From Candidatus Latescibacterota bacterium (GTDB taxonomy: Bacteria > Latescibacterota > UBA2968 > UBA8231), in assembly GCA_965203355.1 (NCBI GenBank), contig OZ241889.1, positions 3,200,001-3,264,000 on the forward strand: a stretch of 64,000 nucleotides of DNA, in the 5' to 3' direction. The position numbers were made by a program, and so were the translations under genes. Numbering within the stretch: the stretch's first letter is position 1; each line of letters starts with the position of its first letter. The notes under the pieces are model-generated. The model worked only from the letters and a program-made list of their open reading frames with translations. It was not told where the DNA came from and did not search any database. Positions 18,680 through 36,296 of the stretch are shown here, piece after piece.

Positions 18680-21600
18680 TCAGCGCACCAACGCCAAACG
18701 CCCCACCGCAACGAATGAATCCGCTGTCAAGCGATAGAAGTAAACCCCCGAAGCCACCGCCCTCCCCTCTTGGTCGCGCCCATCCCAGACGAATCTATAG
18801 CGGCCAGCCGCTAACGGCCCCTCCACGAGGTGGCGGGCAGGCCGCCCCAGCCCATCGTAGAGCACCAGTGCAACCACCGCCGCCTTCGGCAAATCAAACG
18901 ACAGCGCGACCGCGGCGTTGAAGGGGTTGGGATAGGCCGGGTGCAGCGCAAAGTCAGCGGGCAGCACCACCGCCTTGGAGGCATCTTTCTCCGTCCACGC
19001 CACCGCCCCTTCGATCTGCGCGGCAATGGCTGCGCTGTCAGCCCCGCTCCAGTCATTGTCTTGGGCGTTCAACTCCTCGGCAGCCAAATTCTCAATGGCC
19101 ACAGTATTGTTGGCAAAGGTGTTGCCGCCAATCGCCTTCGGCACCCGGGGGCCTTCGACCCGAATAGCCACCGTATTATCCGCAAAGCGATTGCCGAAAA
19201 TGTGCGGCGCAGAATTCGCGGATTGAATGGCTGGGGTCCCGCGGACAAACTCGCTGGCGCGAATCTCCAACGACTCCACGCCCGTCAACGCCAAACTCCG
19301 CCCCCCGACAAACGAGCCCCGCTCAATCGCCCCTCGCGTCCCCGGCCCTAAGCGCAGGCCGGCCGCAACATGCGCCCTAAACGTCGAGTTCCATATCTCG
19401 ACCAGCGACCCAGCGATTTCGGCACCGGCGCGCAAGTTGCGCTCCACCAGCACCTGCGCCAAGGCCAAGCGCGTTGCCCCTCCAGCGCGCAAGCCATCAC
19501 CTTGGTTGGCGACGAAGCGGCTGTTGTGCAATTCCACCGCGCCCTGCCACGCTGTCAAATCCATGCCGTGCCCGGTGTTTTGCTCAATCTGCGACTCCCA
19601 CATCTCAATGCGCTGGCCGCGCCCCCCAATGGCTCGCACCCCAACCCGTGGGTCGTCCGGGTCGAGGCGACCATTGTCAATCACAGCGACGCGGATGGCT
19701 TCCAAGGATGCGTTGTTGAGCAGGATCCCCTCCTGGCCGTTGCCTTCAATCGCGACGTTGCGCAACGCGAGTTGCCCGCTACCGGCCATGAGCAAGGCCG
19801 GGCCAGCAATGGTGGTAAATTCGCTCCGATCTACCTGGGCTCGGCCATTGAGCATCAGCCGCAGGCCGTTGCCGCCGCTTTCGCGCACGGCCGAGTCGGC
19901 AATGCGCAGGCTCGTCGCCTCGTCAATCTCGCCGCTAAAGGCAAAACCCGTGCGCGAAAGCTCGGCGTGCCGCACCTCGACTTGCGCCCCCGGCCGCACG
20001 CGAATGCCATACCACAGGCCGTCGTTCTCTGGGCCGGGATCGGTGGTTAGCTGCGCCCGCTGGCCGGCCATTCCCTCAATCGTCAAGGCACCTTCCACGA
20101 TCAACTCGGCAAAGGCCGGGGACGCGCCGCGGCGGCTCAGATCAGAGCGGCCAAAAGACACGCGGCTCGGGCCGATGTGCAGTTCGGACCCGACCGGCAC
20201 CACCAAATCCGCGTACACAGCCTGCTCGTCCAGCCACTGCGTCCGCCCCGGCGGCAAGCGGAAGCCAACGACCCCGCGCTGGGCGTGTTCAATGGCGATG
20301 GCCGCTGGATCAACCGCTTGACCGTCAAGCAGGTAAATGCCCGACCAATCCAAGGGGCCGGGGCGCACCGCACTCGACGCAAACGATGCACCCTCGCCGA
20401 TTTTGAGCGCACCATAGACAATCAACTCGCTGCGATCTGGATCAAATCCCGTGCCCAGTGCGTCGCCGCGGGCAAAGCGCACCTCTGTACCAGCGTCAAT
20501 GGTCAGCGTGGCGCCCGGCAGCACGATCACGTCCCGGTCCAAATCCACCGGACCCGTCCACATCGCATCGCCGACAATGTGGCCCGGGCGTTGTTGCCGC
20601 ACCACATCGACGACCATCGCGGCACCTTGTGGGCGGATGTTGTCTATGGCCATGCTCAGCGGCACGTTCCGCGCAAAGCCCGCGTGGCCACTGAAGGCCG
20701 GATTCGTGTCCCAAGCGAAGCGACGGAATCGCACGCCGTCAAAAGGATCGGTCGCATCGCCTTTGTTGCCATTGTGGGCCGAAGCATACGCTGCGTCCCG
20801 CGCCCAAAAGTCGAGATTGTCCCGTCCTGCCACCGCATCGGGATTGCCATTGGGAAAGCCCCGGTCGGCAAAAAGCCCATCCGCGCAGACTAAATCGACC
20901 TGTTTGTGCCGCTCTTCGTCGTTGTCGGCTTGCTCGTCTATGTGCCAGATGAGCAAGCCATCTTGCGGGATATTGCGGTTGTAGTATGAGCCATCGGCGC
21001 GCCGGTATTCCAGCAGGAAGTACTCGTCTTGGGTCAGGGGGATTTTGTACGCTTGGCGATCGCGGAAGATCTCCCCGATCGCCAGTCCGGCCACGCTCCC
21101 TTCCACTTCCACCACCTCGATCCAACCGAGCGTGGCTAGCGACCACGCCGAAAAGGCATTGGGGCCATCTTCGACGCCCCAACCGAGCGTCCCCCAGCCC
21201 ATGATCCCCCAATTGCCAATGCCCGCAGAATCCTCCTCCGGGGCCAACTCGGCCCCGGTCAATGCCGTCTGATCGAAGAGATCGGGCAATCCCAACACGT
21301 GCGCGAACTCGTGGCACATCGTCGAGGCCGTAATGCTGAAGGTGTGCCCGCGCTGTGTGGTGCCGCCGAAACCCGTGAAGCGGCTCCGCACCCGCACAAA
21401 GCCACCGCCGACGGCCGGATCGCCGCTAATGTAATCGGCGTCCAGCCCCAGACTGGCGATGCCAGTGGCCGCGCCGATGAAGAAATCGCGGGGAGCCGTA
21501 TGCAAGTTGATAAAGACGATATCGACATACCCGTCGTCGTCTCCTGAGTTGGGCACTCCGTCGGGGCCGTCGTTGTCAAAGAGCCCAAAATCGGCGTCCG

Positions 21601-21985
21601 CGTCGGCGGCAGTGAGTATCTCCAAGTTGAAGCGCCCGAATTGACCGCGGCTTCCCGGGACCTCGGCTAGATAGGTCTGGACGCTGTCACGCGAGCGATA
21701 GCGCCGCGGCAGAACCTCGCCATTGACGTGCATCCGCCCCCCGGACATCGCGCGGTAGAAGTGGGCAAAACTGCCGGGCAACGCCGCGTCGAAAAGGTCA
21801 TAGGCCCACGAGGGCGCAGTGGCCGAGGCTTTCTCATCTGCAAACTGCGCGAAGATGACTAATGCACTCAGATGCTCTGGCGTCGGCACAACCGGCTGCA
21901 CCGACGACTTCAACGCCGCGCAGGCCAACTGGGCCGCTAGGGTTTGGGATGGGAGGAGGAGAAGGAGGAATAATCGCCGCAGCAT
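18680..21985 (-). CDS. Second secreted M6 metalloprotease with beta-helix repeats and FlgD-Ig tail (paralog of 2186-4855)
   Basis: Signal peptide, DNDGPDGVPNSGDDDGYVD, HEFAHVLGLPDLFD, KQVDLVCADGLF, and C-terminal AYPNPFN...WDGRD..G..VASGVY. Confidence 0.85.
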   Translation of the reverse strand: MLRRLFLLLLLPSQTLAAQLACAALKSSVQPVVPTPEHLSALVIFAQFADEKASATAPSWAYDLFDAALPGSFAHFYRAMSGGRMHVNGEVLPRRYRSRDSVQTYLAEVPGSRGQFGRFNLEILTAADADADFGLFDNDGPDGVPNSGDDDGYVDIVFINLHTAPRDFFIGAATGIASLGLDADYISGDPAVGGGFVRVRSRFTGFGGTTQRGHTFSITASTMCHEFAHVLGLPDLFDQTALTGAELAPEEDSAGIGNWGIMGWGTLGWGVEDGPNAFSAWSLATLGWIEVVEVEGSVAGLAIGEIFRDRQAYKIPLTQDEYFLLEYRRADGSYYNRNIPQDGLLIWHIDEQADNDEERHKQVDLVCADGLFADRGFPNGNPDAVAGRDNLDFWARDAAYASAHNGNKGDATDPFDGVRFRRFAWDTNPAFSGHAGFARNVPLSMAIDNIRPQGAAMVVDVVRQQRPGHIVGDAMWTGPVDLDRDVIVLPGATLTIDAGTEVRFARGDALGTGFDPDRSELIVYGALKIGEGASFASSAVRPGPLDWSGIYLLDGQAVDPAAIAIEHAQRGVVGFRLPPGRTQWLDEQAVYADLVVPVGSELHIGPSRVSFGRSDLSRRGASPAFAELIVEGALTIEGMAGQRAQLTTDPGPENDGLWYGIRVRPGAQVEVRHAELSRTGFAFSGEIDEATSLRIADSAVRESGGNGLRLMLNGRAQVDRSEFTTIAGPALLMAGSGQLALRNVAIEGNGQEGILLNNASLEAIRVAVIDNGRLDPDDPRVGVRAIGGRGQRIEMWESQIEQNTGHGMDLTAWQGAVELHNSRFVANQGDGLRAGGATRLALAQVLVERNLRAGAEIAGSLVEIWNSTFRAHVAAGLRLGPGTRGAIERGSFVGGRSLALTGVESLEIRASEFVRGTPAIQSANSAPHIFGNRFADNTVAIRVEGPRVPKAIGGNTFANNTVAIENLAAEELNAQDNDWSGADSAAIAAQIEGAVAWTEKDASKAVVLPADFALHPAYPNPFNAAVALSFDLPKAAVVALVLYDGLGRPARHLVEGPLAAGRYRFVWDGRDQEGRAVASGVYFYRLTADSFVAVGRLALVR

Positions 21986-22163: not shown

Positions 22164-22229
22164 CTACAAACTCTCCCAAACGGATCGACTGGCCTCGGCC
22201 TGCTGTAAAATCTTGTTCAAAACGCCTCT
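22164..22229 (-). pseudogene. hicA: C-terminal remnant of a HicA toxin
   Basis: The minus-strand frame reads RGVLNKILQQAEASRSVWESL*, matching the HicA C-terminal helix pattern (xGLLxxILxQAGxSxxxWExL). It has no start or N-terminus. Confidence 0.6.
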
Positions 22230-22426
22230 GGCAGTGGGTGATCCATTCTCAACCCAAGGATGATCCAGCCTTCAAGCACAGATTGCAATTCTTCACGGCA
22301 CTGTTCTAAGGTATCCGCATTTGCATACACCCCTTGAAAGCCAGCGATTTCCCCATAAAACGTTTGATCGTCGAGAGTCTCGTATGTAGCGTACTTCATC
22401 GCCGATTGAATATAGGCCGTTAGCAT
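22217..22426 (-). CDS. hicB: HicB-like antitoxin (C-terminus probably clipped)
   Basis: MLTAYIQSAMKYATYE..DD..FYGEI..FQGVYA...TLE.CREEL.SVLEGWI..GL...HPLP is the short HicB-family pattern. Confidence 0.8.
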   Translation of the reverse strand: MLTAYIQSAMKYATYETLDDQTFYGEIAGFQGVYANADTLEQCREELQSVLEGWIILGLRMDHPLPEAF

Positions 22427-22508
22427 AGAATGCTCACTTTCAAGGTTCATTCCATAGGGACATGATGTTCTATGGAAAAACGCGCTAGTGTCGCCCCAAC
22501 GCTATCCA

Positions 22509-23936
22509 TCAAAACGTATCGAACGGCGTCTGTCGGCATTCGCGGATGAATTCGGTGGCTTCGCGGTCATAGGTGAGGAAGGGGTCGTCGAGGTTGAGAA
22601 ACTTATCGTCGCCCACGCAAATGGAATCCCAATCAATTTGATAGCGCGTCTTCTGGTCGGTCAGCGCCCTCATCACGCGCGAGCGCACACTGGCGCGAGT
22701 ATCAACCGGGGGGTGCGTGATGGCTTGATTGATCTGCTCGTCGCTGACAACTCGCTTGACCATCCCGCGCTCGTACAGGTCGAAGTAGAGGCTCCGCGCC
22801 GTGTTGAGATTGTGGTATTCCAAATCCAAACTTTGGATCCAAGTATCCTGCCAGTCCAGCCCCTCTTCCCGCATGAAGTACTCCAAGAGCCATTTCTTGG
22901 CCACCCAATCGACGCGATCGACCAAGCACTGCGGATCGTGCTCTAAGGCGTCGATGACAAAGCGCCACTCGTCCAACACCCAGTCGCCCTCTTCGTCCCG
23001 GCCGCGCAAATGGCGGTCGGCCAGGTCGAGATACGCGCGCTGGATCTCGGTCGCCGTAGTGTAGCGACCATCCTCTAGCTGCACTTCCCAGCGATAGGTC
23101 ATGTCGCGCGAAATCTCGCGGATGGCTTGCACCGGGTCGAGGAGCTTGATGTCGTCGCAGACCCCGCGCTCTTGCTCTTCCAAAAGCTGCAACAACAAGG
23201 CCGTGGTCCCCACCTTTAGCGCCGTGGCGTACTCCATCATATTCGAGTCGCCCACCAGCAGGTGCAAGCGGCGGTACAACCCCCAATCGGCCAGTGGCTC
23301 GTCGCGCGTGTTGATAATTGCGCGGCTAAACTGAATCCACTGGTAGATCTCCGTGACGATATGGTCGGCCCGTTGTGATAGCTGGAATCCAACGCTTTCG
23401 TCTTCGGCATTGCCGTACTCGAAAATATCCGTGTGGCAACCCACGCGGCCAGCACCGGCGAATATCTGGCGGGTGACAAAAAAAGGCAGCATGGTCGGCA
23501 GCAGCACTTGCGAAAACGGCACCTCTCGCCGCACGAGATAGTTTTCGTGGCAGCCAAACGTAGCCCCGGTGTAGTGGTCGATATTGTTCTTGAAAAAGGC
23601 CGCGCTATCAGCCAAGCCAAGCTGATCTAGCGCGCGCTGCACCAACCGATCACCGGCCCGATCCGTAGCCACCAAATCAAAAAGCCCGGTGCATTCTGGA
23701 GTGGCGTATTCGAGATGGCCCATGTCGATGTACATGCGCCCGCCATTAAAAAGAAAGCCGCCGTTGCCGGGCGGCTCATCTCGGCCTCGATAGTGCATAT
23801 CAATAAGGCCCAAGTCCTCGCGGTAGAACACCCAGTCCTTGACCTTTATCGACACAAAATCGGGACTCAAAAAGGGATCTGAAGCCGGCGGCAGACAACC
23901 GTACTCGGTTTCCAGCCCGTAGATGCGCCCTTCCAT
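22509..23936 (-). CDS. pafA: Pup/UBact-protein ligase PafA
   Basis: RIYGLETEYG, FNGGRMYID.GH.EYATPEC, KNNID, GCHENY, IINTRDEP.AD, RRLHLLVGDSN and LDLEYH motifs; last gene of the proteasome operon. Confidence 0.88.
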   Translation of the reverse strand: MEGRIYGLETEYGCLPPASDPFLSPDFVSIKVKDWVFYREDLGLIDMHYRGRDEPPGNGGFLFNGGRMYIDMGHLEYATPECTGLFDLVATDRAGDRLVQRALDQLGLADSAAFFKNNIDHYTGATFGCHENYLVRREVPFSQVLLPTMLPFFVTRQIFAGAGRVGCHTDIFEYGNAEDESVGFQLSQRADHIVTEIYQWIQFSRAIINTRDEPLADWGLYRRLHLLVGDSNMMEYATALKVGTTALLLQLLEEQERGVCDDIKLLDPVQAIREISRDMTYRWEVQLEDGRYTTATEIQRAYLDLADRHLRGRDEEGDWVLDEWRFVIDALEHDPQCLVDRVDWVAKKWLLEYFMREEGLDWQDTWIQSLDLEYHNLNTARSLYFDLYERGMVKRVVSDEQINQAITHPPVDTRASVRSRVMRALTDQKTRYQIDWDSICVGDDKFLNLDDPFLTYDREATEFIRECRQTPFDTF

Positions 23937-23937
23937 A

Positions 23938-24699
23938 CTAGACCTCGAAGTAGGAAGCGAGTGACGGGGCTAGTTGTTCCGCGGTGAGCAGGCCGAACTT
24001 CGACTTGGCGGCGCGGTCGCGGTCGAGCACGGCGGCCTCGACTGTCAGCCCTCGCAAACCGCCTTTTAGAAAATCGCGCACAGCCTCTACGCTGGGCACC
24101 TCTCCATCGCGGGCGTCGAGCGTCAACCGACCCAATCCCCACACCTCCAACGCCGCGCTCAAGGCTTGGTCGAGGGGCAGATCTGGGCTGATCTCTTGCA
24201 GTTGTGCCGTCATCGCCTGGGCACTCGCAGCGTTGCCGCTGATGGCCGCCGTGCGACCGCTCTGGGCAAAGGACCCATCGGCGTCAATGGTAAAAAAGGC
24301 GTCGCCGCGGCCGTCCGGGTCGAGCTCGGCCATCAGCACGCGGGCGACAAACGGCGAGCGAAACAACTCGTCGAAAGACGCCTTCATCAGCGGGCCAATG
24401 CCAAAGCTGACCAATCGCTGCAAGGTCACGTCGTTGGCCGACAAGTTGAATCCATCGAGATGGGCGATGTCGATAACGGCTTTGCGCAGCTTTTCGATGT
24501 CGGCCGGGTGCCCCACGGCCGCAAAGGCAATCTCGTCGTACACCTCAAAGAGCTTGCGCGGGCCCGGGGTAGCCGTCAGCAGCAACACCCCGTCGGCATA
24601 CGTCGTGCCCACCACCGGACTGCCGCCCGCAAGCTGATCTTCCACGTACTCGCGGCGGTTGTTGATGGCTTCAACCCAGCGATAAGGTTCTTCTAACAT
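23938..24699 (-). CDS. prcA: 20S proteasome alpha subunit
   Basis: EEPYRW...RREYV...GSPVVG, RKLFEVYD.IAFAAVG and EAAVLDR motifs; position between prcB and pafA. Confidence 0.85.
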   Translation of the reverse strand: MLEEPYRWVEAINNRREYVEDQLAGGSPVVGTTYADGVLLLTATPGPRKLFEVYDEIAFAAVGHPADIEKLRKAVIDIAHLDGFNLSANDVTLQRLVSFGIGPLMKASFDELFRSPFVARVLMAELDPDGRGDAFFTIDADGSFAQSGRTAAISGNAASAQAMTAQLQEISPDLPLDQALSAALEVWGLGRLTLDARDGEVPSVEAVRDFLKGGLRGLTVEAAVLDRDRAAKSKFGLLTAEQLAPSLASYFEV

Positions 24700-24703
24700 G
24701 CCT

Positions 24704-25462
24704 TCAAGCCCTTTGGTAGAGCGCGGCCAAATCCGCCTCGGGTACCGTGTGCAAGCCCGCGGCCGTCACCTGCACGACCTGGGGGAAAACGTGCGCAGCC
24801 TCGCGGAAGCCGCCCGTAGCCGTGTCGTATTCAGCGGCGGTCTCCAGCATCTTGAGCACCAGCTCGACCGCCTGTTCTCCAGCCATTTCTCGCAGCGGCT
24901 GCGGCCCCCAGCGGTTTTGGTAGTACAGCGCGCCGCGCACGATGTGGGCACCCGACCCAGTGGCGCAGAAATCCACGCACTCGAATTCGGCCCCCAAAAG
25001 GTCGTAAAAGAAAATTTTGCCCTCGGCGGCTGCGGGGTCAAAGGCCGCAAAAATCGGCACCACAGCGCCAATCCCCTGCATGGCCAGCGGCAAGTTCTGG
25101 CGCAATAGCCGCGACAACGTCCGCACCTTGCCGTCCAAGCTCAGCCCTTGGAGCTGGCTACGGCGGTAGTACTGCACCGACATTTCCAGCATCCGCGCAA
25201 TGTCCCACGCCACGGCCGGCGAGCCGGCAATGGCCATGACGGCTTCGTCGTCGATGATCAACACTTTGTCGGCGCGGTCGTACACCACCGAGTTGCCCAT
25301 GGTGGCGCGGCGATCGCCAGCCACCACCACCCCGTCGGCGCAGCGCACCGCTACAATCGTGGTGCCCTCGACCAGCGGCAAGGACGCTTCTGGAGTGGCA
25401 ACGGGGGCGACGGGCAAAGCCCCACGCTCCTTGAGCAAGTTGAGGAAGTCGCAGCTTTCCAT
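24704..25462 (-). CDS. prcB: 20S proteasome beta subunit (33-aa propeptide, Thr1 nucleophile)
   Basis: G|TTIVA processing site, GDRRAT (Asp17), Lys33, ATGSG and D.ATGG motifs. Confidence 0.92.
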   Translation of the reverse strand: MESCDFLNLLKERGALPVAPVATPEASLPLVEGTTIVAVRCADGVVVAGDRRATMGNSVVYDRADKVLIIDDEAVMAIAGSPAVAWDIARMLEMSVQYYRRSQLQGLSLDGKVRTLSRLLRQNLPLAMQGIGAVVPIFAAFDPAAAEGKIFFYDLLGAEFECVDFCATGSGAHIVRGALYYQNRWGPQPLREMAGEQAVELVLKMLETAAEYDTATGGFREAAHVFPQVVQVTAAGLHTVPEADLAALYQRA

Positions 25463-25468
25463 CGGCCG

Positions 25469-25660
25469 CTATTGGCCGGTGCGCTGGCGGTAGCGACGCG
25501 CCTGATTGGGATCTACGCGGCGCATCCGCTTGAGGATGTCGTCCGTGCTGGGGCGCTCGACCCGCGGCCGGCGCGGGCCGGTATCCGGGCCGTCGTCGTT
25601 GCCGTCGAGCGGCTTGGTCGGCCGGGGCGCACGCTCCCGGTAGTACATAAAATCGCTCAT
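25469..25660 (-). CDS. ubact: UBact prokaryotic ubiquitin-like modifier (Gln-terminated)
   Basis: 63-aa disordered protein ending ILKRMRRVDPNQARRYRQRTGQ, which fits the UBact R[T/S]G[E/Q] signature. It lies between dop and prcB and has a GGAGG RBS. Confidence 0.9.
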   Translation of the reverse strand: MSDFMYYRERAPRPTKPLDGNDDGPDTGPRRPRVERPSTDDILKRMRRVDPNQARRYRQRTGQ

Positions 25661-27201
25661 GGTGACACCTCCGGTTTTGGTTTTTTACCTAGTCTGGCGA
25701 GCAAATCCTCGACGCTCGCCGCCTCGTCTAAAGCCTCGTTATAATAAGTCGCGGTCTCTCGACTGACACAAGCCTTGAGGTCGATGACCTCGGTGCGGCC
25801 GTCGAGTTCCAGCTCAATGCTGTCCCAGTTGAGCGAGCGCACCGCAGCGGCAAATTTCTGCAACATCTTGCCGCGAAAGTAAGCGCGCGTGTCTTTAGGC
25901 GGATTGACCAACGCCCAGCCCACCTCCGCTTCAGAGACGACGCGCTCCACTTGGCCGGCGGCTTCAAGCACCGGGTACAGCCCTTCAGCCGGATCGATGT
26001 TGTGGTATTCGAGGTCTTGGCTTTGCAGCCACGCGAGGTCGGCCGGCCGTTCCCAATCGAGGCGCTCGGACTCGGCAAATGCATCTAACAGCCACTTTTT
26101 GGTCACCCAATCGACGCGGCCAATCAACGCTTGCGGATCGCGCGCGAGGGCATCCAACACGTCGCGCCAAGCCGCAAGAACCCAATCGGTCTCCTCGTCG
26201 CGGCCCTGAAAAACACCCGTCGCCGCAGCCATAATGGCCGTCTGTATCTCCAGCGCCGAACTCATCCTACCCTCGGCCAAAGCCACCGGCCACTGCCGGG
26301 ACTCGTCGCGGGAAATGGCCTTGAGCGCCCCAATGGGATCGGCCAAAGTACATGCGGGCAATGCACCAGCCTCTAGCAGATCCAGCACCAAGGAAGCCGT
26401 GCCAACTTTGAGCGCCGTAGCGTATTCGCACATGTTGGCGTCGCCGATGATCAGATGCAGGCGGCGGTGTTGCGCCGGATTGGCGTGCGGCTCATCGCGC
26501 GTGTTGACCAGCGGACGGCGGTGCATGGTATCAACGCTGGCGATGACCTCGAAAAAGTCCGCACGCTGGGTTAGCTGATACGTGGCGGCGCGCGCCCGGG
26601 CGTCCTGTTCGACGCCGACTTTGCCGGCCCCAGCAAAAATTTGCCGCGTCACCACAAAGGGCAGCAGCCCGTTGATCACCTGCTGGAAGGGCATATCGCG
26701 GCTGAGCAGGAAGTTCTCGTGGCAACCGTAGCTATGCCCCTCAAAGTCCGTGTTGTTTTTGTACAGACGCACCACGCCGCGACCGCGATCTTCGGTGCGT
26801 TGACGCGCACATTGGCGGAGAATCCGCTCCCCAGCGCGATCAACGGCGACCAAGTCGCGGAGGCTATAGCATTCTGGGGTGGAAAATTCTGGGTGGGTGT
26901 GATCGTTGTACAGGCGGGCCCCGTTGTGGACGATCAAGTCGCTTTTGAGGTCCGCTAGCTCAATCGGGCGCTGGCGATCCTGCTGCAAGTGGACGGTCTC
27001 GTCCTTGTCGTTGAGGAGTTCGGCGACCTCAAAGCCGCGCATGTCGAGCCGCGGGTTTTCGAGCGCGTAATTCCAGCGGGCAACAAAATCTTGGCGCACA
27101 TAGCAGCGAATCAACTCCATGGACTCTACCACCACGTCCATGGACTCGTCTTCGTCAACTTGGATGCCGTACTCGGTTTCTAAGCCGCAGAGCCGCTGCA
27201 T
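25657..27201 (-). CDS. dop: Deamidase/depupylase Dop
   Basis: GLETEYGI, W.Y..E.P..D.RGF Dop loop, NGARLYNDH.HPE.STPEC, SYGCHEN, TM..RPLVNTRDEPHA and RRLHLIIGDAN motifs. Confidence 0.9.
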   Translation of the reverse strand: MQRLCGLETEYGIQVDEDESMDVVVESMELIRCYVRQDFVARWNYALENPRLDMRGFEVAELLNDKDETVHLQQDRQRPIELADLKSDLIVHNGARLYNDHTHPEFSTPECYSLRDLVAVDRAGERILRQCARQRTEDRGRGVVRLYKNNTDFEGHSYGCHENFLLSRDMPFQQVINGLLPFVVTRQIFAGAGKVGVEQDARARAATYQLTQRADFFEVIASVDTMHRRPLVNTRDEPHANPAQHRRLHLIIGDANMCEYATALKVGTASLVLDLLEAGALPACTLADPIGALKAISRDESRQWPVALAEGRMSSALEIQTAIMAAATGVFQGRDEETDWVLAAWRDVLDALARDPQALIGRVDWVTKKWLLDAFAESERLDWERPADLAWLQSQDLEYHNIDPAEGLYPVLEAAGQVERVVSEAEVGWALVNPPKDTRAYFRGKMLQKFAAAVRSLNWDSIELELDGRTEVIDLKACVSRETATYYNEALDEAASVEDLLARLGKKPKPEVSP

Positions 27202-27209
27202 GAGCTAAG

Positions 27210-28904
27210 TCAGATCACCTGACCAACGCGCTTTTCCGGTGACTTTTCCGGCTGGGGCCTAACCGGGGTCACCCGCACGACGTTTTCCGGCTCGTAGTCG
27301 AGTAGTTTGAGCCAGTCCTCGACGCTATCCGAAGGGGGGAACACCTCGTTTTCGCGGTATTCAGCCCGCGTCGCCTGCCGCAAGTCCTCGGCGCAGATTC
27401 CGCCTGCGGGATTTTCTTCGGCAATGGCGCGCTTGATCGCCATTTCCTTGGCCCGCGATACGACCGAGGCGATGATGGCCCCGGAAATCAAATCGCCGCG
27501 ATAGAGCACTTCTTGGCGACCGCTGCGCAGCGACACCTCCAAGAAGCGCGCTTCTTCGCCTTTGGCGAACAACTCGTTCAAGCCCGCCTGTATCAGGGCC
27601 TCACGCGCAGCCGCCTCGCCCCCGTGTTGCTCCACCTCGGCGCGATCAATCGGCAACTCGGGCTTGAGGTAAATGCCCAAAATGTCGGCGGCCGCCTCGT
27701 AGTTGGGGCGCGCGACCTTGATCTTGCGGTCGATGCGGCCGGGCCGGAGCACCGCTGGATCGATCAAATCGTGGCGGTTGGAAGCCAAAATCAGCACCAC
27801 ATCGTGCAGCGACTCAATGCCATCCATCTCAGTGCAAAACATCGGCACGACCGTATTGGAGATGTTGTGGCTGCGCATCGAGCGCCGCGTGCCCAAGATC
27901 GACTCGGCTTCGTCGATAAAGACAAAAGGCAAATAACCTTCCTTGCGCTTTTGGCGCGCCTGAGCAAAGACTTCGCGCACCATGCGTTCGGTCTCGCCGA
28001 GCCACATGTTGAGAATCTCCGGCCCCTTGATGTGCATGAAATACTCTTCCAGTTCCAGTCCTTCGACCTCGCGCATGTGCTGCACCAAGTTGTACGCGGT
28101 GGCTTTGCCGATGAGGGTCTTGCCACAGCCCGGCGGGCCGTAGAGTAGAAAGCCTTTGGGCGTCGAATACTCGAAGCGCTCAAAGAGCTGGGGGTGCAAC
28201 GTGGGTAGTTCAATGGTGTCGCGGATGGCCTCAATCGCCTCTTGCTGACCGCCGATGCTCTCCCAAGGAGTGGGCGGCACGTCCTCGATGAAGTACTCCT
28301 TGCTCTCGGCGGACTGCAAAACTTCCAACGCAACCTTGTAGGCCGGGTCCATCCGCACCTCGTCGCCGATTTGCAAATTCGCGTCAGCCAATTCCGCGGC
28401 GCGTTCCACGACCACCTCTTGGGCGCCGTGCGCTTGGGCGATGCGCAAGCGGCCCTCGGGCAGCAGGTCGCCGATCTTGGCCACCGGCCCCGAGGGGCTG
28501 TGCCCCAAGTTGCCGACGACCGCATACGCTTCGTTCACCAGCACTCGGCAGCCAACCTGGAGCTGCGCCCCATCGACGCGCGGGTCAATGTTGGCATAGT
28601 ACTCGGCGCTGCCGACAAATACCGTGGCAACCCCCTCGCTCGGCATCCCGAGGAAAATGCCGACGCGGTTGGCTGGGGCCGTTACTTTTTCTAGCGCGGC
28701 TTCCATCTCCACGAGGGCACGCCGCGCCTCCTGAAAGGAAATCTCTCGCTCCATAAGCTGGCGCCGGAGGCGGTACAGCAGCGGGCGAGCCGGGTCGCGG
28801 TCTGGGGCGAGCGCAAGGAGCTTATCGACCAAGCGCAACGGCTCGGCTACCCGCTCCTCTGGCTCTTGGACCTTGTCGTATTCGTGCGATTCCCTGCGGT
28901 TCAT
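27210..28904 (-). CDS. arc: Proteasomal AAA+ ATPase ARC/Mpa
   Basis: N-terminal coiled coil, two OB domains, GPPGCGKT, IKGPEILN, FIDEAES, ASNR.DLIDPAVLRPGRIDRKI and SGAII motifs. Confidence 0.93.
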   Translation of the reverse strand: MNRRESHEYDKVQEPEERVAEPLRLVDKLLALAPDRDPARPLLYRLRRQLMEREISFQEARRALVEMEAALEKVTAPANRVGIFLGMPSEGVATVFVGSAEYYANIDPRVDGAQLQVGCRVLVNEAYAVVGNLGHSPSGPVAKIGDLLPEGRLRIAQAHGAQEVVVERAAELADANLQIGDEVRMDPAYKVALEVLQSAESKEYFIEDVPPTPWESIGGQQEAIEAIRDTIELPTLHPQLFERFEYSTPKGFLLYGPPGCGKTLIGKATAYNLVQHMREVEGLELEEYFMHIKGPEILNMWLGETERMVREVFAQARQKRKEGYLPFVFIDEAESILGTRRSMRSHNISNTVVPMFCTEMDGIESLHDVVLILASNRHDLIDPAVLRPGRIDRKIKVARPNYEAAADILGIYLKPELPIDRAEVEQHGGEAAAREALIQAGLNELFAKGEEARFLEVSLRSGRQEVLYRGDLISGAIIASVVSRAKEMAIKRAIAEENPAGGICAEDLRQATRAEYRENEVFPPSDSVEDWLKLLDYEPENVVRVTPVRPQPEKSPEKRVGQVI

Positions 28905-28916
28905 GGCATCCTCCCA

Positions 28917-29621
28917 CTAGTGGATCACGTCGCCGAGACGCCCGTAGCGCACTCGGCTGGGCAGGCGCCAGACAAAGCTGGCGACCACGGCCGGCAGCGA
29001 CGTCAAGCCCTGGTAGTAAGGCCCGCGCGTGTCGGGCTTCCACGACCAATAGATACTCATGGCCTTGCCCTTGATCAACCGCTTGGGCACCGCACGAAAG
29101 TAGCGGCTGTCCGAGCTATTGTCGCGGTTGTCGCCCATCATAAAGAAATGGCCCTCGGGCACAATGTACGGACCAAAATTGTCGCGTGGATTGCGCTCCG
29201 CTGGATAGTACCGGCGGTCGGCGTACTTGGCCAACGGCGGGTCTTGCACCGGCTCGCCATTGACGTGGAGCACTTTGTCGATGATGTGGACTTCCTGCCC
29301 TCCGACGGCGACACAGCGCTTAATCAAGTCGCGCTTCTCGTCCTGCGGAGAACGGAAAATCACGATGTCGCCCGGCTGTGGTTCCTTGAGCGCGGGCAGA
29401 CGGAAGAGGGAAATGCTCGTCAGGGGTACATCTACTGGAACGCCGTAGACAAACTTGTTGGCCAGCAGATAATCGCCCACCAAGAGCGTGTCTTCCATCG
29501 AGCTAGAAGGGATGTAAAAGGCCTGCACCACCCCGGTGCGAATGACCAAAAACAAACCCACGACAGTCAGTATTGAATACAGGTATTGGCCAAATTCGGA
29601 CTTTTGCTTGGCCTGCTTCAT
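28917..29621 (-). CDS. lepB: Signal peptidase I
   Basis: TM anchor, IPSSSMEDTL (Ser), IKR (Lys) and MMGDNRDNSSDSR. Confidence 0.95.
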   Translation of the reverse strand: MKQAKQKSEFGQYLYSILTVVGLFLVIRTGVVQAFYIPSSSMEDTLLVGDYLLANKFVYGVPVDVPLTSISLFRLPALKEPQPGDIVIFRSPQDEKRDLIKRCVAVGGQEVHIIDKVLHVNGEPVQDPPLAKYADRRYYPAERNPRDNFGPYIVPEGHFFMMGDNRDNSSDSRYFRAVPKRLIKGKAMSIYWSWKPDTRGPYYQGLTSLPAVVASFVWRLPSRVRYGRLGDVIH

Positions 29622-29776: not shown

Positions 29777-32281
29777 TTAGCGCAACAATCGGGCCATCTT
29801 TTGCCTCTTGTGCTTCTCGGCATAGTCTAACGGCGTCCGACCTTTATCGTCCTTGGAATTGGGATTGGTCCCCTTGTCTAACAGCACTTTAGCGGTCTCG
29901 AGAGCGTTGTGTTGGGCAGCGTAGTGCAGCGGCGTCCGACCCTTCTCATCCTTGCTATTAAGATAGCCCTGGCCTCCCATGTCTATCAGCACTTTAGCGG
30001 TCTCGAGAGCGTTGTGTTGGGCCGCATAGTGCAGCGGCGTCATACCCTTCGCGTCCCTCGGACTGAGAGCGGCGCCCTTGCCTCTAAGCACTTTAGCGGT
30101 CTCTGAAGCGTTGTGTTGGGCCGCATAGTGTAGCGGCGTCCGCCCCTTCGCGTCCCTGGGATTGCTGCCTATCAGCACTTTGGCGATCTCGAAAGCGTTG
30201 TGTTCCGCCGCATAGTGCAGCAAGCCTTTGCCGTCTTCGTCGCTGGAAAGAGCCGACAAAGTCTCGAAAGCCTTGGCTATCGCAGGTTGTTCTTCATACA
30301 GCCGGCCGCGATCTTTGGCATCCTTGGCATGGTCCGGGTCCTCTTGTTTCAACACATGCTCTAAGGTGCTAAGTAACGAACCGCTCTGTGAAAGCTTCCC
30401 CCGCAGATCCTTGTGCGACTTGGCGATGTCTAACGGCGCCCTACCATTCTTGTCCGCGATGCCGATATAGCCCCCCTTGTCTATCAGCATTTTAGCGACC
30501 CTGAAAGCGCTGCACCATATCGCATAGTGTAGCGGCGTCTGACCGTCATTGTCCTTGACGTTGACAAAGGCCTCCCTGCCGATCAGCACGTTAGCGGTCT
30601 CACAAGCGTTGTGTTGGGCCGCATAGTGTAGCGGCGTCCGCCCCTCCGCGTCCCTGGGATTGCTGCCGCTCAGCACTTTAGCGATCTTGAAAGCGTTGTG
30701 TTCCGCCGCATAGTGCAGCAAACCTTTGCCGTCTTGGTCGTTGGAAAGAGCCGACAAAGTCTCGAAAGCATTGGCTACCGCCGCATTGCCCTCGTCTGTG
30801 GTATTGGGTTCCTCATACGGCCGATCGCTATCTTTGGCATCCTTTAGACCATTTAGTAAATCGGTAATACGTTTGAAGAAGTCCGTGTCCCCTTGCGACC
30901 CTGCCGCCGGCTTCTCGACCGGCTGACGATCCTGACTCGGGGGTTGGATATGCACGATCTGTCCTGCTGACGCCGGCTTCTCGACCGGCTGCCGCCACAT
31001 TTTTTGCAATTCCTCGACACTCTTCTGATCCGGTACCAACGACTCAAGAACCTGAGCAAGCGCGTTGAGCATCTTCTCTTTCACTCGAGCTAGCTCCTCC
31101 TTGATAGGAGCAAAATCTCGATTTTGGGCTTTCATGATCTCGGCGATCTTTTCTCCAAGCACATCCTGCACTTTCTCATCAACAACCCACTTATTCAAGT
31201 CAAGATCGAGCTTGTTCAGTTCCCTCATCAGCACCTGGGCACTCTGCTCGTCTTGGCCTATGGCTTCTTCATACATCGAAAAAATCGCTTCCATCTCCGA
31301 TTTCATCTTAGCCCCCAACGCAGCCGGCTTGAATGCTTGGTTCTGGTCGCGCAAAAATTCCTTTAGAGGCTGCCCTTCACACAGATACTCTTCGCGGTGA
31401 TTGGCACTATACGCGCAGATGCCCACCGGCTCCAGTTCGTCGTCCGCGAGAATATCCTTAACATCCGTCAGGATGGCTTGCCGATCACTAGGGGACTTCG
31501 TGTCCGCCTTGTTCAATACCACATACAACGGCAACCCGTTCAACTCCAAGTTTTGTAAAAAGTCCAAATCGTCACTCGGCATCGTACCCGTCGCGTCTAA
31601 GCCGATCATCCAAATCAAAGCATCCCGATCCTTGAGAGCGACCACCGCTGTATTCCGATCCTCAGTGGTGTCACCTCCAGCCGGATTATAGCCCGGCGTG
31701 TCGATCAGGTAGATGTGCTCAAACAAGCCCTCTTGCAAAGGTATTTCAACGGTGATAAAGGGTAGAATAGCTCGGAGATCAAGGTCGTCTTTAGCATCGT
31801 GATCGTGCGAAAATTCCTTGTAGAGAGTCGGCGCAATATCTGCGGTGGCTCCTGAGCGGGAAAAGCCCTTTATCGAGATCGACCGGCTAGACAGCACATA
31901 CGACGGGATCTTCGTGGTCGGTGTAAGGCCAACAGATAGCTGAAGATCCGACGACCGAACAAAGCTATTGACAAACGACGACTTACCGCTGCTAAAGCCG
32001 CCGCCAATGGCAACCGAGTGCTTGGTAAAGGTGTGCGGAAAGGCCACGATCTTTTCCAACCGTTTTAAAAAATCCTGCAAGCGTGTAACGGCCAACGCCT
32101 CGTTTGCCAACGACGACTCCTTGCCGGCAAACTCCATAAAGTCCTCCTCGAAAGTCCGCTTAAAATGCTCAAAAGCCTCATTCTCACTCGGCTTCTTGCT
32201 GAGCAGATTGGTAATCAAGGCGTACTTTTGCTGCAAAACCTCCAAGTCTGCTTTGGTGCGCTCGTACTCTGTGCGGCTCAT
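29777..32281 (-). CDS. Dynamin-like GTPase fused to C-terminal ankyrin repeats
   Basis: G1 GGFSSGKS, G2 PTT, G3 DTPG and G4 NKAD, then a helical stalk, then about 9 G.TPLHYAA..N-type ankyrin units in two duplicated blocks. Confidence 0.88.
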   Translation of the reverse strand: MSRTEYERTKADLEVLQQKYALITNLLSKKPSENEAFEHFKRTFEEDFMEFAGKESSLANEALAVTRLQDFLKRLEKIVAFPHTFTKHSVAIGGGFSSGKSSFVNSFVRSSDLQLSVGLTPTTKIPSYVLSSRSISIKGFSRSGATADIAPTLYKEFSHDHDAKDDLDLRAILPFITVEIPLQEGLFEHIYLIDTPGYNPAGGDTTEDRNTAVVALKDRDALIWMIGLDATGTMPSDDLDFLQNLELNGLPLYVVLNKADTKSPSDRQAILTDVKDILADDELEPVGICAYSANHREEYLCEGQPLKEFLRDQNQAFKPAALGAKMKSEMEAIFSMYEEAIGQDEQSAQVLMRELNKLDLDLNKWVVDEKVQDVLGEKIAEIMKAQNRDFAPIKEELARVKEKMLNALAQVLESLVPDQKSVEELQKMWRQPVEKPASAGQIVHIQPPSQDRQPVEKPAAGSQGDTDFFKRITDLLNGLKDAKDSDRPYEEPNTTDEGNAAVANAFETLSALSNDQDGKGLLHYAAEHNAFKIAKVLSGSNPRDAEGRTPLHYAAQHNACETANVLIGREAFVNVKDNDGQTPLHYAIWCSAFRVAKMLIDKGGYIGIADKNGRAPLDIAKSHKDLRGKLSQSGSLLSTLEHVLKQEDPDHAKDAKDRGRLYEEQPAIAKAFETLSALSSDEDGKGLLHYAAEHNAFEIAKVLIGSNPRDAKGRTPLHYAAQHNASETAKVLRGKGAALSPRDAKGMTPLHYAAQHNALETAKVLIDMGGQGYLNSKDEKGRTPLHYAAQHNALETAKVLLDKGTNPNSKDDKGRTPLDYAEKHKRQKMARLLR

Positions 32282-34524
32282 GGGTTCACCTCCATATTAT
32301 CCAGTTCGCCTTTAACAGCACTAATTCTCTTTAGCTCCATTTCCTTGTTTTTAACGGAGTTCTCAAGCGAGACCAGCTCTCTTTGGTATCGCTCTAGTAG
32401 CTGCTCTGCCAAGGAATATTTGCTCATTTCTTCTTCTAGAGATTTGACGTATTTATTTATCTCACCCCTCAATTCATCTACGAATTCACCGATATAGACA
32501 TTCGCCTCATTAATAAATTTTTCCGCGGCTTTTTCTTTCAACAAGCCTTGGGACCGTAGAGATTTCGGCAGCTCTTTTGAGTAACTAAACTCTGAGATAG
32601 TTATGGCGTTGACAGTGCGCCTGGCCACTCTCCTTATCATCGCGGCATCCAACTGATCTTCGTCAAAACTCTCTCGCAACTCTTTGGTAGCGGATTTGAG
32701 GACATCGCTACGCCACTCTTCCTTTTTTTGTTCTGCCAATTCACCGAGAGAATCCGTCAAGTTTTGGTGGAATTCCGACAGCCCACTTAAAAAGGTACCT
32801 GTGCGGATGGTTTTATATTCCACCTGTTTGTATTCAGGGCTTCCCCAGAACTTCCACCAAGGCTTCTCTATTTCCACCCGTCCTTTACCTATACCTGTCG
32901 CCTTATCAAGAGCCTCCTCCAAAGCTTCTTTGCTGAGTTTACGCAAGGCTTCCTTTTTCAACTCGCTTATAACCTTCTGAATAGACTCTTGATATCCCAA
33001 GCTGACGTCCTCAGAAGCATTGCTGAGATTAGTTTTCAAAGCCTCTCTCTTCTTCTTAATGGTCTGAACATCTTCGCGTTCAATGTTATTTTGCATCTCC
33101 TCGACATGGTCGGACAAACCAGTGCGTAGAGCGCGAAGAGAACGGTGTTTGCCCTGGACGTAATTGCCAATCCGATTCTTGAGAATCTCCTCTTTCTTCG
33201 CCCGCACCTGTTCGACGATCGCCTGAATCGTCGACATATTGGCCAGCTTGTCCAAATTGCTCTTCGCCGATTGCTCATTCGAGAAATAATCTGGATACTC
33301 CCTCTGCAAACTGCTCCACACATGAACCATCCCTTCGTCCCAGCCCTCCTGCTGTCCAAAGCGTTGCTTCATACTTTCGCAAAGCCCCGCCGAGTGGATA
33401 ACCCTGCTCTGACCTTCAATCAACTGGTCATAGGCATCTTTCACCTCGGGATTACTTTCTTTGAGATCCTCGATAACCTTTTTCAAGTGGTGCCCAAGTT
33501 CTTGGGTGATAGCGTTCAACACGCGATCTAGCTGTCCGTCGTTTTCTACCTTCATATTGCTAAACATTTGGGTATCTACTTGGGCCGCCACGACATATAG
33601 CTCTCGGACGCCCTCCTTGCTGGTAATTCGGTCCATCAGTTCCATATCTTCGTGAGAAATAAACTGACCCGCCGGACTGACGACTAGCACCACGTCGCAT
33701 TTGCTTAAATACTCGCGGGTGCGCGCCTCACGCGACTGAATCGGATCGTTGATCCCGGGGGTATCTACGATCTGTATGTCCTTTAGGTTGTCTTGCGGCA
33801 GCAGGATGTTGACGCTCTTGGTAAAAGGCATGTATGGACCATCGGCACCCACGTACTCCGCCAGTTGGCTTTGCAAATCCGCCAGACCGCCCGACAAATT
33901 CAGCACCTTACTTTTGCCCAAACTCCCAATGGACGTATTGCTGTTGTCGATTTTCTCGCATTGCTCGTAAGACGACGCGAGAACGGGATTTTTATCGCGT
34001 ATCTCCCTTGTTGCTCGACGCTGCGCCTTTTCCTTGTCCTCAGTTGTGTGGCCTGCTACTTTTCTCACCGCCTTCCCAAGTCTGCTCTCTCCTTTCTCCA
34101 AAAGCTCATCTAAAAGATCACGCACGCGCTCCTGCACTTGCTTTTCGTAATCCCGAGCCTGAGCCTTCATATCCTCAATATCCGCAGGAGTAAAAAACTC
34201 CACTTCCGCCTGTACCGAATCCCCGTGCGAAAGGGTCGTCAAAGCAGCCGTCATTGGGGTCGCCGCCTTGGGCAAAATGCTCTGTCCCTCGAAGACCAAG
34301 GCGTTCAAAAGCGAGGACTTCCCCGACTTGACCCGCCCGACAATACCAATCCTCAGCAACCGTTCATCATCTTCAATCTCGGCCAATTCGGCTTGCAGTT
34401 TCTTGGCTGAGGGGATGCTGTGCGTTTGGTCCAAACTTGTTGCTTCATCGCCGAGAAGATCGCTGTACTTATCAACGACCTGATCCAGCTTTTCGCGGTA
34501 TGCTACAATGCCAATATGTTCCAT
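32278..34524 (-). CDS. Dynamin-like GTPase (LeoBC/DLP-like, unsplit)
   Basis: GRVKSGKS, PMTA, DTPGINDP..SRE..T and a long coiled-coil stalk with a KPWWKFWG aromatic paddle; AAGGAG RBS. Confidence 0.85.
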   Translation of the reverse strand: MEHIGIVAYREKLDQVVDKYSDLLGDEATSLDQTHSIPSAKKLQAELAEIEDDERLLRIGIVGRVKSGKSSLLNALVFEGQSILPKAATPMTAALTTLSHGDSVQAEVEFFTPADIEDMKAQARDYEKQVQERVRDLLDELLEKGESRLGKAVRKVAGHTTEDKEKAQRRATREIRDKNPVLASSYEQCEKIDNSNTSIGSLGKSKVLNLSGGLADLQSQLAEYVGADGPYMPFTKSVNILLPQDNLKDIQIVDTPGINDPIQSREARTREYLSKCDVVLVVSPAGQFISHEDMELMDRITSKEGVRELYVVAAQVDTQMFSNMKVENDGQLDRVLNAITQELGHHLKKVIEDLKESNPEVKDAYDQLIEGQSRVIHSAGLCESMKQRFGQQEGWDEGMVHVWSSLQREYPDYFSNEQSAKSNLDKLANMSTIQAIVEQVRAKKEEILKNRIGNYVQGKHRSLRALRTGLSDHVEEMQNNIEREDVQTIKKKREALKTNLSNASEDVSLGYQESIQKVISELKKEALRKLSKEALEEALDKATGIGKGRVEIEKPWWKFWGSPEYKQVEYKTIRTGTFLSGLSEFHQNLTDSLGELAEQKKEEWRSDVLKSATKELRESFDEDQLDAAMIRRVARRTVNAITISEFSYSKELPKSLRSQGLLKEKAAEKFINEANVYIGEFVDELRGEINKYVKSLEEEMSKYSLAEQLLERYQRELVSLENSVKNKEMELKRISAVKGELDNMEVNP

Positions 34525-34598
34525 TTTACTTCTCCTTTTAGATAACGTCTGGTACTCTCTTGAGTGGGAGATGCTTCGCTGCGTTCAGCATCGCTGGT

Positions 34599-36296
34599 TT
34601 AGGTGAAAATCGCTTGCTGGGCCTGTGAGCGAATGGTATCGCGAATGGTGGTAAGCTCGGCGATGGTCTGCTCCGTATTGCTCTTTTCGTCTTGCTTGGC
34701 TTGCTCGGCCGCGGCGATTTGGCTCCGCCTCTCTTGGATATGCGAATCCAATGCCTTGGCCTGCTCGTCGATCAAAAGGCTCACCTGCTCCTCGAAATGC
34801 TTGGGCAGTTCGCTGCGAATTTTGCTCTTGACATCCGGGATTACCGTTCCAATCAACTGGTCTCGGATTTGCTGCTCTTGCTTCCTCTTCTGAAAGCGGC
34901 CAATAATTTCGGGCAAGAAGAACAAAGCGAGCCCCAAGATGGGTTGTAAGAGGGTAATGGTCAGCGTGGTGACCACAGCGCGGTACATCCACTTTGTTTG
35001 TGAACTGGTGCCTCTCCCGAGGATTTTGTCCACCTCAGGCAACCCTCCAACTTTCGCCGCCAACTCTTCAGAGTTTGCGCCCGAGTACTGGCCCAAAACC
35101 GAGTCCATATTGAGACGGCCGACCAAATCCTCCTCAATTTGCCGGTGTAGCCGATCCATCGCCTCCTCCGTATGTCTCACAAGCGATGTGCGGACGATTT
35201 CCGACACTTCACGGTTTAGCGCACTTTGGGCGTTTTCTCCGCTGGACATAGCCAGCTTCGTTAGGTCTTCTACGGCCGCTTCCAAATCCGCGCCGACCCC
35301 TTCCACAATGGTGTTGACCCGGCTGGTGGAATACCGCGTGCGAATGTCTCGAATCATCTCTTCCTTTTGGCTCTGCAATTTCTGTAGATCGGCGGCAAGT
35401 TCGTCGATGGCCTCTTGGTTTTCCCGTGAGTCCCGTTGCAGTGCGCTGATACACGTGTTCAGGCTGCCATCGAGTTCCAAAGAGTGCGACTCCAAGCGGG
35501 AACCCCACCGCTCGGCGAACAGCTTTTCTGGATCGATGGCCTTGAGCATCTTGGCCAAGGTCTCCCCGCCATCCATGCCCAAAGTCTCAACAGGCGCGGA
35601 AAGCTCAAAGTCATCCTTTAGCCGATCCTGGATCTTGGTGGCAATCTCTTGGACCTCGGTGGGCGCACGCAGATTCGCCTTGCTTAGGAACACGGAGAAC
35701 TCCTTGCCGACCTGGTGGATTTCGGATAGCTGCCGCTCGATGGAGCGCGTGAGAGTCCCCTCCTCCACGCTGGTCAAGCCCACGTAGTAGCTTCCTTTAT
35801 TGAGGTAGGTCAAAATGGCGCGGTGATGTAAATCCCACGGCGCGTCAAAACCCGGCATATCTACCAGCACCAAGGGGAGAATCCTGTGCAGGGACTCGCT
35901 ATTGAGAAAGACCCGCACATATTGGTATTGGCGGGCGCGCGCTTCGTCGTTGTGAATCGCATCCAGCTCCTCAAGGGCGAAGCGGTCCGCCTCCCCATCC
36001 TCCTTGACCGCCTCGATATACTCGCTTGCCGAATGCCGCAGCTCGGTCGCCAACGCAGTCTTCGGGTTAATGCCCACTGGCAGGCACTCAGAGCCTAAAA
36101 AGGAATTGATCAAGGTACTCTTGCCCGCACTAAAAGCCCCGACCACCGGCACGATCAGCTCGGCCTCGGCCAAGTTTTGCTTTAATGGCTCTATCGACTG
36201 GATGTTCTTTTCTATCGCCTCCATAGAGCGGGCTTTGCTCAATTCGGCTTTGACTCCATCGAGATAAGCGAGAAACTGTTGTTGCGTCTGTAGCAT
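34599..36296 (-). CDS. Dynamin-like GTPase (LeoA-like)
   Basis: VVGAFSAGKS, P.TA.ATEL, LVDMPGFD and LSK motifs, with a hydrophobic hairpin ..LGLALFFLPEII near the C-terminus; GGGAGG RBS. Confidence 0.88.
   Translation of the reverse strand: MLQTQQQFLAYLDGVKAELSKARSMEAIEKNIQSIEPLKQNLAEAELIVPVVGAFSAGKSTLINSFLGSECLPVGINPKTALATELRHSASEYIEAVKEDGEADRFALEELDAIHNDEARARQYQYVRVFLNSESLHRILPLVLVDMPGFDAPWDLHHRAILTYLNKGSYYVGLTSVEEGTLTRSIERQLSEIHQVGKEFSVFLSKANLRAPTEVQEIATKIQDRLKDDFELSAPVETLGMDGGETLAKMLKAIDPEKLFAERWGSRLESHSLELDGSLNTCISALQRDSRENQEAIDELAADLQKLQSQKEEMIRDIRTRYSTSRVNTIVEGVGADLEAAVEDLTKLAMSSGENAQSALNREVSEIVRTSLVRHTEEAMDRLHRQIEEDLVGRLNMDSVLGQYSGANSEELAAKVGGLPEVDKILGRGTSSQTKWMYRAVVTTLTITLLQPILGLALFFLPEIIGRFQKRKQEQQIRDQLIGTVIPDVKSKIRSELPKHFEEQVSLLIDEQAKALDSHIQERRSQIAAAEQAKQDEKSNTEQTIAELTTIRDTIRSQAQQAIFT

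Follow-up and report, generated by a model that had tools for sequence, protein, structure and literature searches.

A six-gene UBact-proteasome operon

We analyzed a 64,000-nucleotide stretch of contig OZ241889.1 from a Candidatus Latescibacterota bacterium (referred to here as the window), in which six consecutive open reading frames on the minus strand, spanning positions 22509 to 28904, encode a small UBact protein tag, two enzymes of the Pup-ligase family, both subunits of a 20S proteasome, and a proteasomal ATPase. The genes are ordered arc-dop-ubact-prcB-prcA-pafA, all six start with ATG, and the intergenic gaps along this order are 8, -4, 6, 4, and 1 nucleotides, respectively, such that the ubact start and the dop stop codon share 4 nucleotides. 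An initial annotation, made from the letters of this DNA alone, had described a complete and tightly packed operon in this arrangement, and the six reading frames with their gaps of -4 to 8 nucleotides bear that description out. Our overall conclusion is that this is an intact Latescibacterota UBact-proteasome operon and that, by analogy, it most likely works like actinobacterial pupylation.

The arc gene (27210 to 28904) encodes a 564-residue ATPase of the ARC/Mpa-type proteasomal AAA+ class, with an AAA domain and two OB domains. It is followed by dop (25657 to 27201), whose 514-residue product is a homologue of the deamidase/depupylase Dop with a Pup_ligase domain and the Dop loop, and by ubact (25469 to 25660), which encodes a tag of only 63 residues. 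The proteasome subunits come next, with prcB (24704 to 25462) encoding a 252-residue 20S beta subunit and prcA (23938 to 24699) encoding a 253-residue alpha subunit, both of the Proteasome family. The last gene, pafA (22509 to 23936), encodes a 475-residue PafA-type enzyme, the presumed UBact ligase, which has a Pup_ligase domain and lacks the Dop loop.

The operon is the norm for its phylum

A search with the Dop sequence returned 372 related stretches in species-representative genomes, from which we kept 79 loci with Dop identities of up to 93%. Most of these loci are labelled Candidatus Latescibacterota, some Gemmatimonadota/-etes or uncultured Gemmatimonadaceae, one Handelsmanbacteria, and one Nitrospirota. 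The six genes occur in the same order and on the same strand in 66 of the 79 loci, which are all of those long enough to show the order; of the other 13, 2 begin inside the cluster and 11 are cut by contig ends, and at these 11 the PafA query merely cross-matches dop at 42 to 50%. The genomes closest to the window operon are metagenome-assembled genomes of Candidatus Latescibacterota with operon genes 93 to 97% identical to ours, and a complete genome of such a close relative (G001, 93 to 97% identical across the operon genes) served as a proxy for the genome of the window organism. UBact was found in 127 of the 167 genomes of this relative’s phylum, a count in which absence from incomplete genomes is uninformative. 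The UBact-proteasome operon is thus the norm for Latescibacterota.

Across alignments of 68 to 75 orthologues, reaching down to approximately 59% identity, every catalytic residue that we checked is conserved, and the GhExE motifs of both Pup_ligase paralogues vary little or not at all.

The tag belongs to the UBact family and has one of its two usual C termini

We found that the 63-residue tag passed both curated UBact models, scoring 72.7 bits against a cut-off of 27.8 for Pfam PF20513 (E = 2.1e-20) and 74.4 bits against a cut-off of 35 for the NCBIfam equivalog NF033388. The Pup model had no match to the tag, and UBact was the sole Pfam family recovered at E values of up to 10. A comparison of UBact with Pup by hidden Markov model (HMM), which the initial annotation had proposed as a check, therefore came out on the side of UBact. 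That annotation had also read the C terminus as RQRTGQ rather than the GG[E/Q] of Pup; the end of the 63-residue reading frame is indeed RQRTGQ, and it matches the R-[TS]-G-[EQ] motif of the family.

In a large protein collection, we recovered 162 homologues of the tag at E values of 0.001 or less. All 120 of the homologues listed carry PF20513, and NCBI annotates homologues as ‘ubiquitin-like protein UBact [Candidatus Latescibacterota bacterium]’. The window tag shares 94% identity with tags in the database, and across homologues there is hardly any variation in the C-terminal half. Among the 120 listed of the 162, the C termini are RTGE in 63, RTGQ in 52, RSGE in 4, and truncated in 1.

The initial annotation had put emphasis on the terminal Gln, but this is not a special feature, given that 52 of the 120 listed homologues end in Gln against 67 in Glu. 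At 76 related genomic loci the balance is 43 Gln to 33 Glu, and the two ends follow clades: where Dop identity to the window protein is 65% or more, the tag ends in Gln at 42 of 45 loci, and below this level it ends in Glu at 30 of 31. We therefore rejected the idea that the Gln terminus is unusual and consider Gln and Glu, both of which are common, to be two normal states of the family. The published picture for Pup is similar, with Gln and Glu forms both in existence and Dop retained alongside either one (PMC3511204).

Three genomes of the phylum (G039, G067, and G110) contain a second UBact match. In the first of these, two matches lie approximately 150 nucleotides apart on one contig (G039:C69:7179-7576), which may reflect a tandem duplication of the tag.

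Two Pup-ligase-family enzymes, one Dop type and one probable ligase

The window locus holds two Pup-ligase-family paralogues, one with the Dop loop and one without it. The 514-residue protein (Pup_ligase, E = 9.8e-158) scored 448 bits with the Dop model TIGR03688 versus 362 bits with the PafA model TIGR03686, and its residues 1 to 504 align to Acidothermus Dop (4b0r, E = 4.8e-118), with the Dop-loop region included. All 75 aligned sequences share its G-L-E-T-E motif and D100-H101, and an N-D-H-T-H-P-E stretch is invariant or nearly so in the orthologue alignment. Hecht et al. 2020 (Table 1, PMC7947786) list among the Dop states a His directly following the catalytic Asp, as well as an S-T-P triplet; the window protein has both, the latter as S107-T108-P109, and its alpha-loop is only partly Dop-like. 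With the Dop loop, the His, and the S-T-P all present, its sequence identifies this protein as being of the Dop type.

The 475-residue enzyme (Pup_ligase, E = 1.7e-143) is less easily placed, and one alternative is that it is not a ligase but another hydrolase of the Dop kind, or a paralogue without activity, in which case the system would not form conjugates in the manner of Pup. Among solved structures, those of Dop are its closest relatives (9cku at E = 1.8e-86 versus the PafA structure 4b0t at 2.5e-74), and its NCBIfam scores for PafA and Dop tie at 371.3 bits (TIGR03686) versus 370.7 bits (TIGR03688). Among the positions that discriminate PafA from Dop according to Hecht et al., position 15 (Pro80) is in the Dop state, only two of nine alpha-loop positions are PafA-like, leaving seven that are not, and alpha-loop positions 26 to 32 match neither enzyme.

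Set against this are several features that argue for a ligase. The enzyme lacks the Dop loop of approximately 37 residues, and a Met replaces the Dop-specific His after the catalytic Asp71, with the resulting D71-M-G-H (within an I-D-M-G-H motif) invariant in 68 of 68 sequences. The PafA model covers residues 4 to 464 and the Dop model only 61 to 443, while the alignment to PafA 4b0t runs over 58 to 464 and includes the C-terminal part, so that the C-terminal 25 residues are covered by the PafA model and the PafA structure only. Further PafA-like states occur at Hecht positions 7 (Phe61), 11 (Gly73), 13 (Ala78), 25 (His192), 33 (Ser204), and 46 (Asp435). For all its distance from PafA, a 17-residue stretch of the alpha-loop is identical in all 68 orthologues, as would be expected if the enzyme were active and under constraint.

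The genomic context points in the same direction. The complete genome of the close relative has exactly two genes of the Pup-ligase family, two of the proteasome family, and a single UBact, and each of these lies in the operon. The ligase must therefore be one of the two paralogues, and since the gene for the 475-residue enzyme lies in the pafA position, downstream of prcA, and there is no third family member to serve in its place, we assign the ligase role to this enzyme. We accordingly regard a second hydrolase or an inactive paralogue as highly unlikely.

We also predicted the complex of the PafA-type enzyme with UBact, supplying our own alignments of 46 PafA-type and 51 UBact sequences. 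Three runs gave complex scores (ipSAE) of 0.83, 0.84, and 0.83, compared with 0.01 for the best of three controls; for calibration, 116 of 157 solved complexes and 2 of 215 mismatched pairs attain the same mark, counts that hold only roughly here because we used our own alignments. The three runs share at least 55% of their contacts, with a partner pLDDT of at least 56. In the model, UBact residues 38 to 63, the conserved half of the tag, contact PafA residues 11 to 15, 71 to 74, 120 to 130, and 350 to 390, of which 11 to 15 are the ATP motif and 71 to 74 the catalytic loop. The prediction thus supports a fit of the C-terminal half of UBact in the active-site groove of the PafA-type enzyme, with the C terminus of the tag at the catalytic loop.

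The proteasome core and an ATPase with a tyrosine-less tail

Both proteasome subunits are recognizable members of their family. PrcB matches the Proteasome family at E = 5.3e-30 and scores 169.5 bits with TIGR03690 (cut-off, 191.9). In an alignment with the mature Rhodococcus beta chain (1q5q_H), the first residue of that chain falls on residue 34 of PrcB, which makes Thr34 the counterpart of the catalytic Thr1 and implies a 33-residue propeptide cut after Gly33. All 73 aligned sequences have T34 and D50, and 72 of them have K66. PrcA has a Proteasome family E value of 1.5e-08, a TIGR03691 score of 76.8 bits (cut-off, 139), and the Rhodococcus alpha chain 1q5q_A as its best solved relative (E = 9.6e-13). 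K49 of PrcA is conserved in all 71 aligned sequences. In the complete genome of the close relative, both PF00227 matches lie within the operon, and an HslV-type gene was not detected.

The ATPase matches Pfam AAA (E = 1.7e-30), Prot_ATP_ID_OB_N (3.1e-15), and OB_C (4.3e-12), and scores 454 bits with TIGR03689 (cut-off, 504.75). Mpa is its best solved relative (5kwa, E = 5.3e-99), with residues 56 to 546 of ARC aligned to Mpa 76 to 585. The predicted domain order is an N-terminal coiled coil, two OB domains, AAA, and an Mpa-like C-terminal region, and the Walker A, Walker B, and M-W-L-G pore loop motifs show little or no variation among 75 aligned sequences.

The C-terminal tail of the ATPase differs from that of Mpa, which needs a C-terminal GQYL for opening of the 20S gate (PMC8142254). 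The window ARC ends in GQVI. The ARC proteins of 76 related loci end in VI (58), VV (9), IV (6), II (2), or AI (1), and none of the 76 has a penultimate Tyr. This raises the potential that UBact tagging is mainly regulatory or otherwise nondegradative, with a 20S proteasome that acts largely independently of an ATPase lacking the Tyr-containing docking and gate-opening tail. Some actinobacteria have pupylation without proteasomes, as noted in the same review (PMC3511204), which would fit such a role. On the other hand, the six genes are packed together and their order is kept wherever a related locus is long enough to reveal it, and the invariance of PrcA K49 also speaks against a core uncoupled from its ATPase. 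The last two ARC residues, moreover, are constrained to Val/Ile while the approximately 10 residues before them vary, as expected of a docking tail. We judge a mainly nondegradative role to be very unlikely. The tails tentatively suggest a distinct and conserved docking tail in UBact-type ATPases.

We surveyed the tails of the wider ATPase family among the best 150 representatives at 50% identity, hand-picking 42 whose match reached query residue 530 or beyond. Of these 42, taken irrespective of tag type, 8 end in [V/A/I]-I, 10 in x-Y-L, and 24 in neither; the 8 include the representatives most similar to the window ARC. Among the 50%-identity representatives, the best match to the ATPase (P0121) is 894 residues long; beyond its ARC-like part it has approximately 357 additional residues and also a second stretch that matches, and it may be a fused form.

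Operon boundaries and RNA-library contigs

A terminator-like hairpin with a T-run (22482 to 22502, minus strand) lies 6 nucleotides past the pafA stop codon and is a likely 3′ end of the operon, on weak evidence, as terminator-type sites were not enriched across the region (11 found versus 8.7 expected from shuffles). Promoter sites were likewise not enriched over shuffles in the same regional scan (4 versus 2.4). At the other end, the signal peptidase I gene lepB (28917 to 29621, minus strand; Peptidase_S26, E = 8.5e-47) lies 12 nucleotides upstream of arc, and the interval separating the two genes contains a ribosome-binding site, GGGAGGA. In 44 of the 79 related loci, all in closer clades, lepB is immediately upstream of the operon; it is a conserved neighbour, and we make no claim that it belongs to the UBact-proteasome system.

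Contigs from RNA libraries (four runs from three studies) span much of the operon at 90 to 95% likeness to the window, and they run across the PafA/PrcA, Dop/ARC, and ARC/lepB junctions. The runs account for only a small share of the stretch (0.05 to 0.06), and the uncovered parts are uninformative. Given that the contigs are only 90 to 95% alike, they come from relatives of the window organism, and we take them as a weak hint that the operon is expressed.

Neighbouring genes in the window

A UPF0150/HicB-like gene (22217 to 22450, minus strand; GC content, 0.47) lies 58 nucleotides past pafA, beyond the terminator-like hairpin, and is present in 8 of the 79 related loci; we saw no convincing open reading frame for a HicA partner nearby. 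On the other side of the operon, three consecutive dynamin-family GTPase genes (29777 to 36296, minus strand; 834, 748, and 565 residues) occupy a stretch of lower GC content, the first of them fused to a long ankyrin-repeat region. Two adjacent leucine-rich-repeat proteins (44913 to 47519, plus strand), the first with a dockerin domain, have, like these ankyrin repeats, eukaryote-like repeats. Two large proteins (18680 to 21985 and 2186 to 4855, both minus strand) combine an M6 (immune inhibitor A-like) peptidase with beta-helix repeats, and the former terminates in a FlgD_ig-type domain.

The window also encodes three DNA methyltransferases, of the D12 class (4852 to 5994, minus strand), the Eco57I type (12602 to 15121, plus strand), and the C5 cytosine class (52604 to 53908, minus strand), the latter two in low-GC islands (0.46 to 0.51). 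A homologue of WelO5-like carrier-protein-independent halogenases (57582 to 58409, minus strand; E = 1.2e-15) adjoins an aminotransferase gene. A protein in the window has a CHU_C type IX secretion sorting domain, which fits a host that appears to be diderm, as the initial annotation had supposed.

How the system would work and what it offers

By analogy with pupylation, whose chemistry and locus order are the basis for the steps that we propose (PMC3511204), the largely disordered 63-residue UBact would be made with a C-terminal Gln, which the Dop homologue would convert to Glu by deamidation. The PafA-type enzyme, using ATP, would then activate the gamma-carboxylate of this Glu and link UBact to the side chains of target lysines. 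An ARC hexamer would recognize the tag, unfold the substrate, and feed it into the PrcA/PrcB 20S core, where Thr34 of PrcB would be the N-terminal nucleophile once the propeptide is removed, and Dop could also take the UBact tag off. Deamidation, ligation, recognition by ARC, and degradation are all modeled in this way on Pup. The initial annotation had put forward the same sequence of Dop followed by PafA, and our HMM searches, alignments to solved structures, catalytic-residue conservation, and PafA-UBact fold model agree with it.

Several observations weigh against this picture. All five enzyme and subunit proteins fall under the cut-offs of the NCBIfam actinobacterial equivalogs (in rounded bits, 454 against 505 for Mpa, 448 against 492 for Dop, 371 against 551 for PafA, 170 against 192 for PrcB, and 77 against 139 for PrcA), though these models are their best hits. 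The 475-residue enzyme has the tied scores, Dop-leaning structural relatives, and largely non-PafA alpha-loop described above, and ARC is without the GQYL tail that Mpa requires to open the 20S gate. The complex score may come partly from the predictor’s memory of the solved Pup-PafA complex 4BJR, although UBact gave no match to the Pup model. The RNA-library contigs derive from relatives, may include DNA, and are no proof of a single transcript. Finally, UBact biochemistry was not found in the open literature that we searched; the same open literature yielded nothing relevant on a Latescibacter proteasome or on pupylation in Gram-negative Verrucomicrobia.

As a discovery, the operon adds little, since it is standard for Latescibacterota and already annotated in public records; the window operon is known and ordinary for its phylum. 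Its value is practical. The initial annotation had regarded the locus as an intact set for reconstitution, and we concur: the gene set is compact, its catalytic residues are conserved, and it is single-copy judging by the close-relative genome, making it sound material for a first UBact reconstitution. Because the tag ends in Gln, both functions of Dop and the ligase could be addressed in one such reconstitution.

Comparison with known systems

Compared with the UBact-proteasome system, we found nothing of substance that differs in the window operon. The tag passes both curated models and has the R-T-G-[EQ] end, the gene order is arc-dop-ubact-prcB-prcA-pafA, and the host phylum already has NCBI ‘UBact’ annotations. 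The window locus shows every testable defining feature of the system and is a member of the UBact branch.

With the actinobacterial Pup system, the locus shares the same six roles, the gene order, the enzyme folds, and the catalytic residues, as well as a tag with a Gln/Glu terminus, which by analogy implies the same deamidation and ligation chemistry. It differs in that the tag is UBact and not Pup, ending in TGQ and not GGQ, and in that the window proteins score below the equivalog cut-offs. The ARC tail is [VI][VI] rather than GQYL, the PafA alpha-loop is a different sequence that is invariant in this lineage, the beta propeptide appears to be 33 residues long, and the host is apparently diderm. 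Three features of the actinobacterial system are thus absent from the window locus, namely the tag family, the GQYL tail, and scores above the equivalog cut-offs.

The differences in the ATPase tail and the ligase alpha-loop are modest. We tentatively propose, giving the idea somewhat less than an even chance, that the Tyr-less aliphatic [Val/Ile]-[Val/Ile]-COOH tail may dock to and open the 20S proteasome, as a third code beside the archaeal/eukaryotic HbYX and the actinobacterial GQYL, and that the UBact ligase may achieve PafA-type chemistry with an invariant alpha-loop of its own. Together, the Tyr-less tail of the ATPase and the distinct alpha-loop of the ligase are concrete, testable differences between this UBact-proteasome system and the Pup system.

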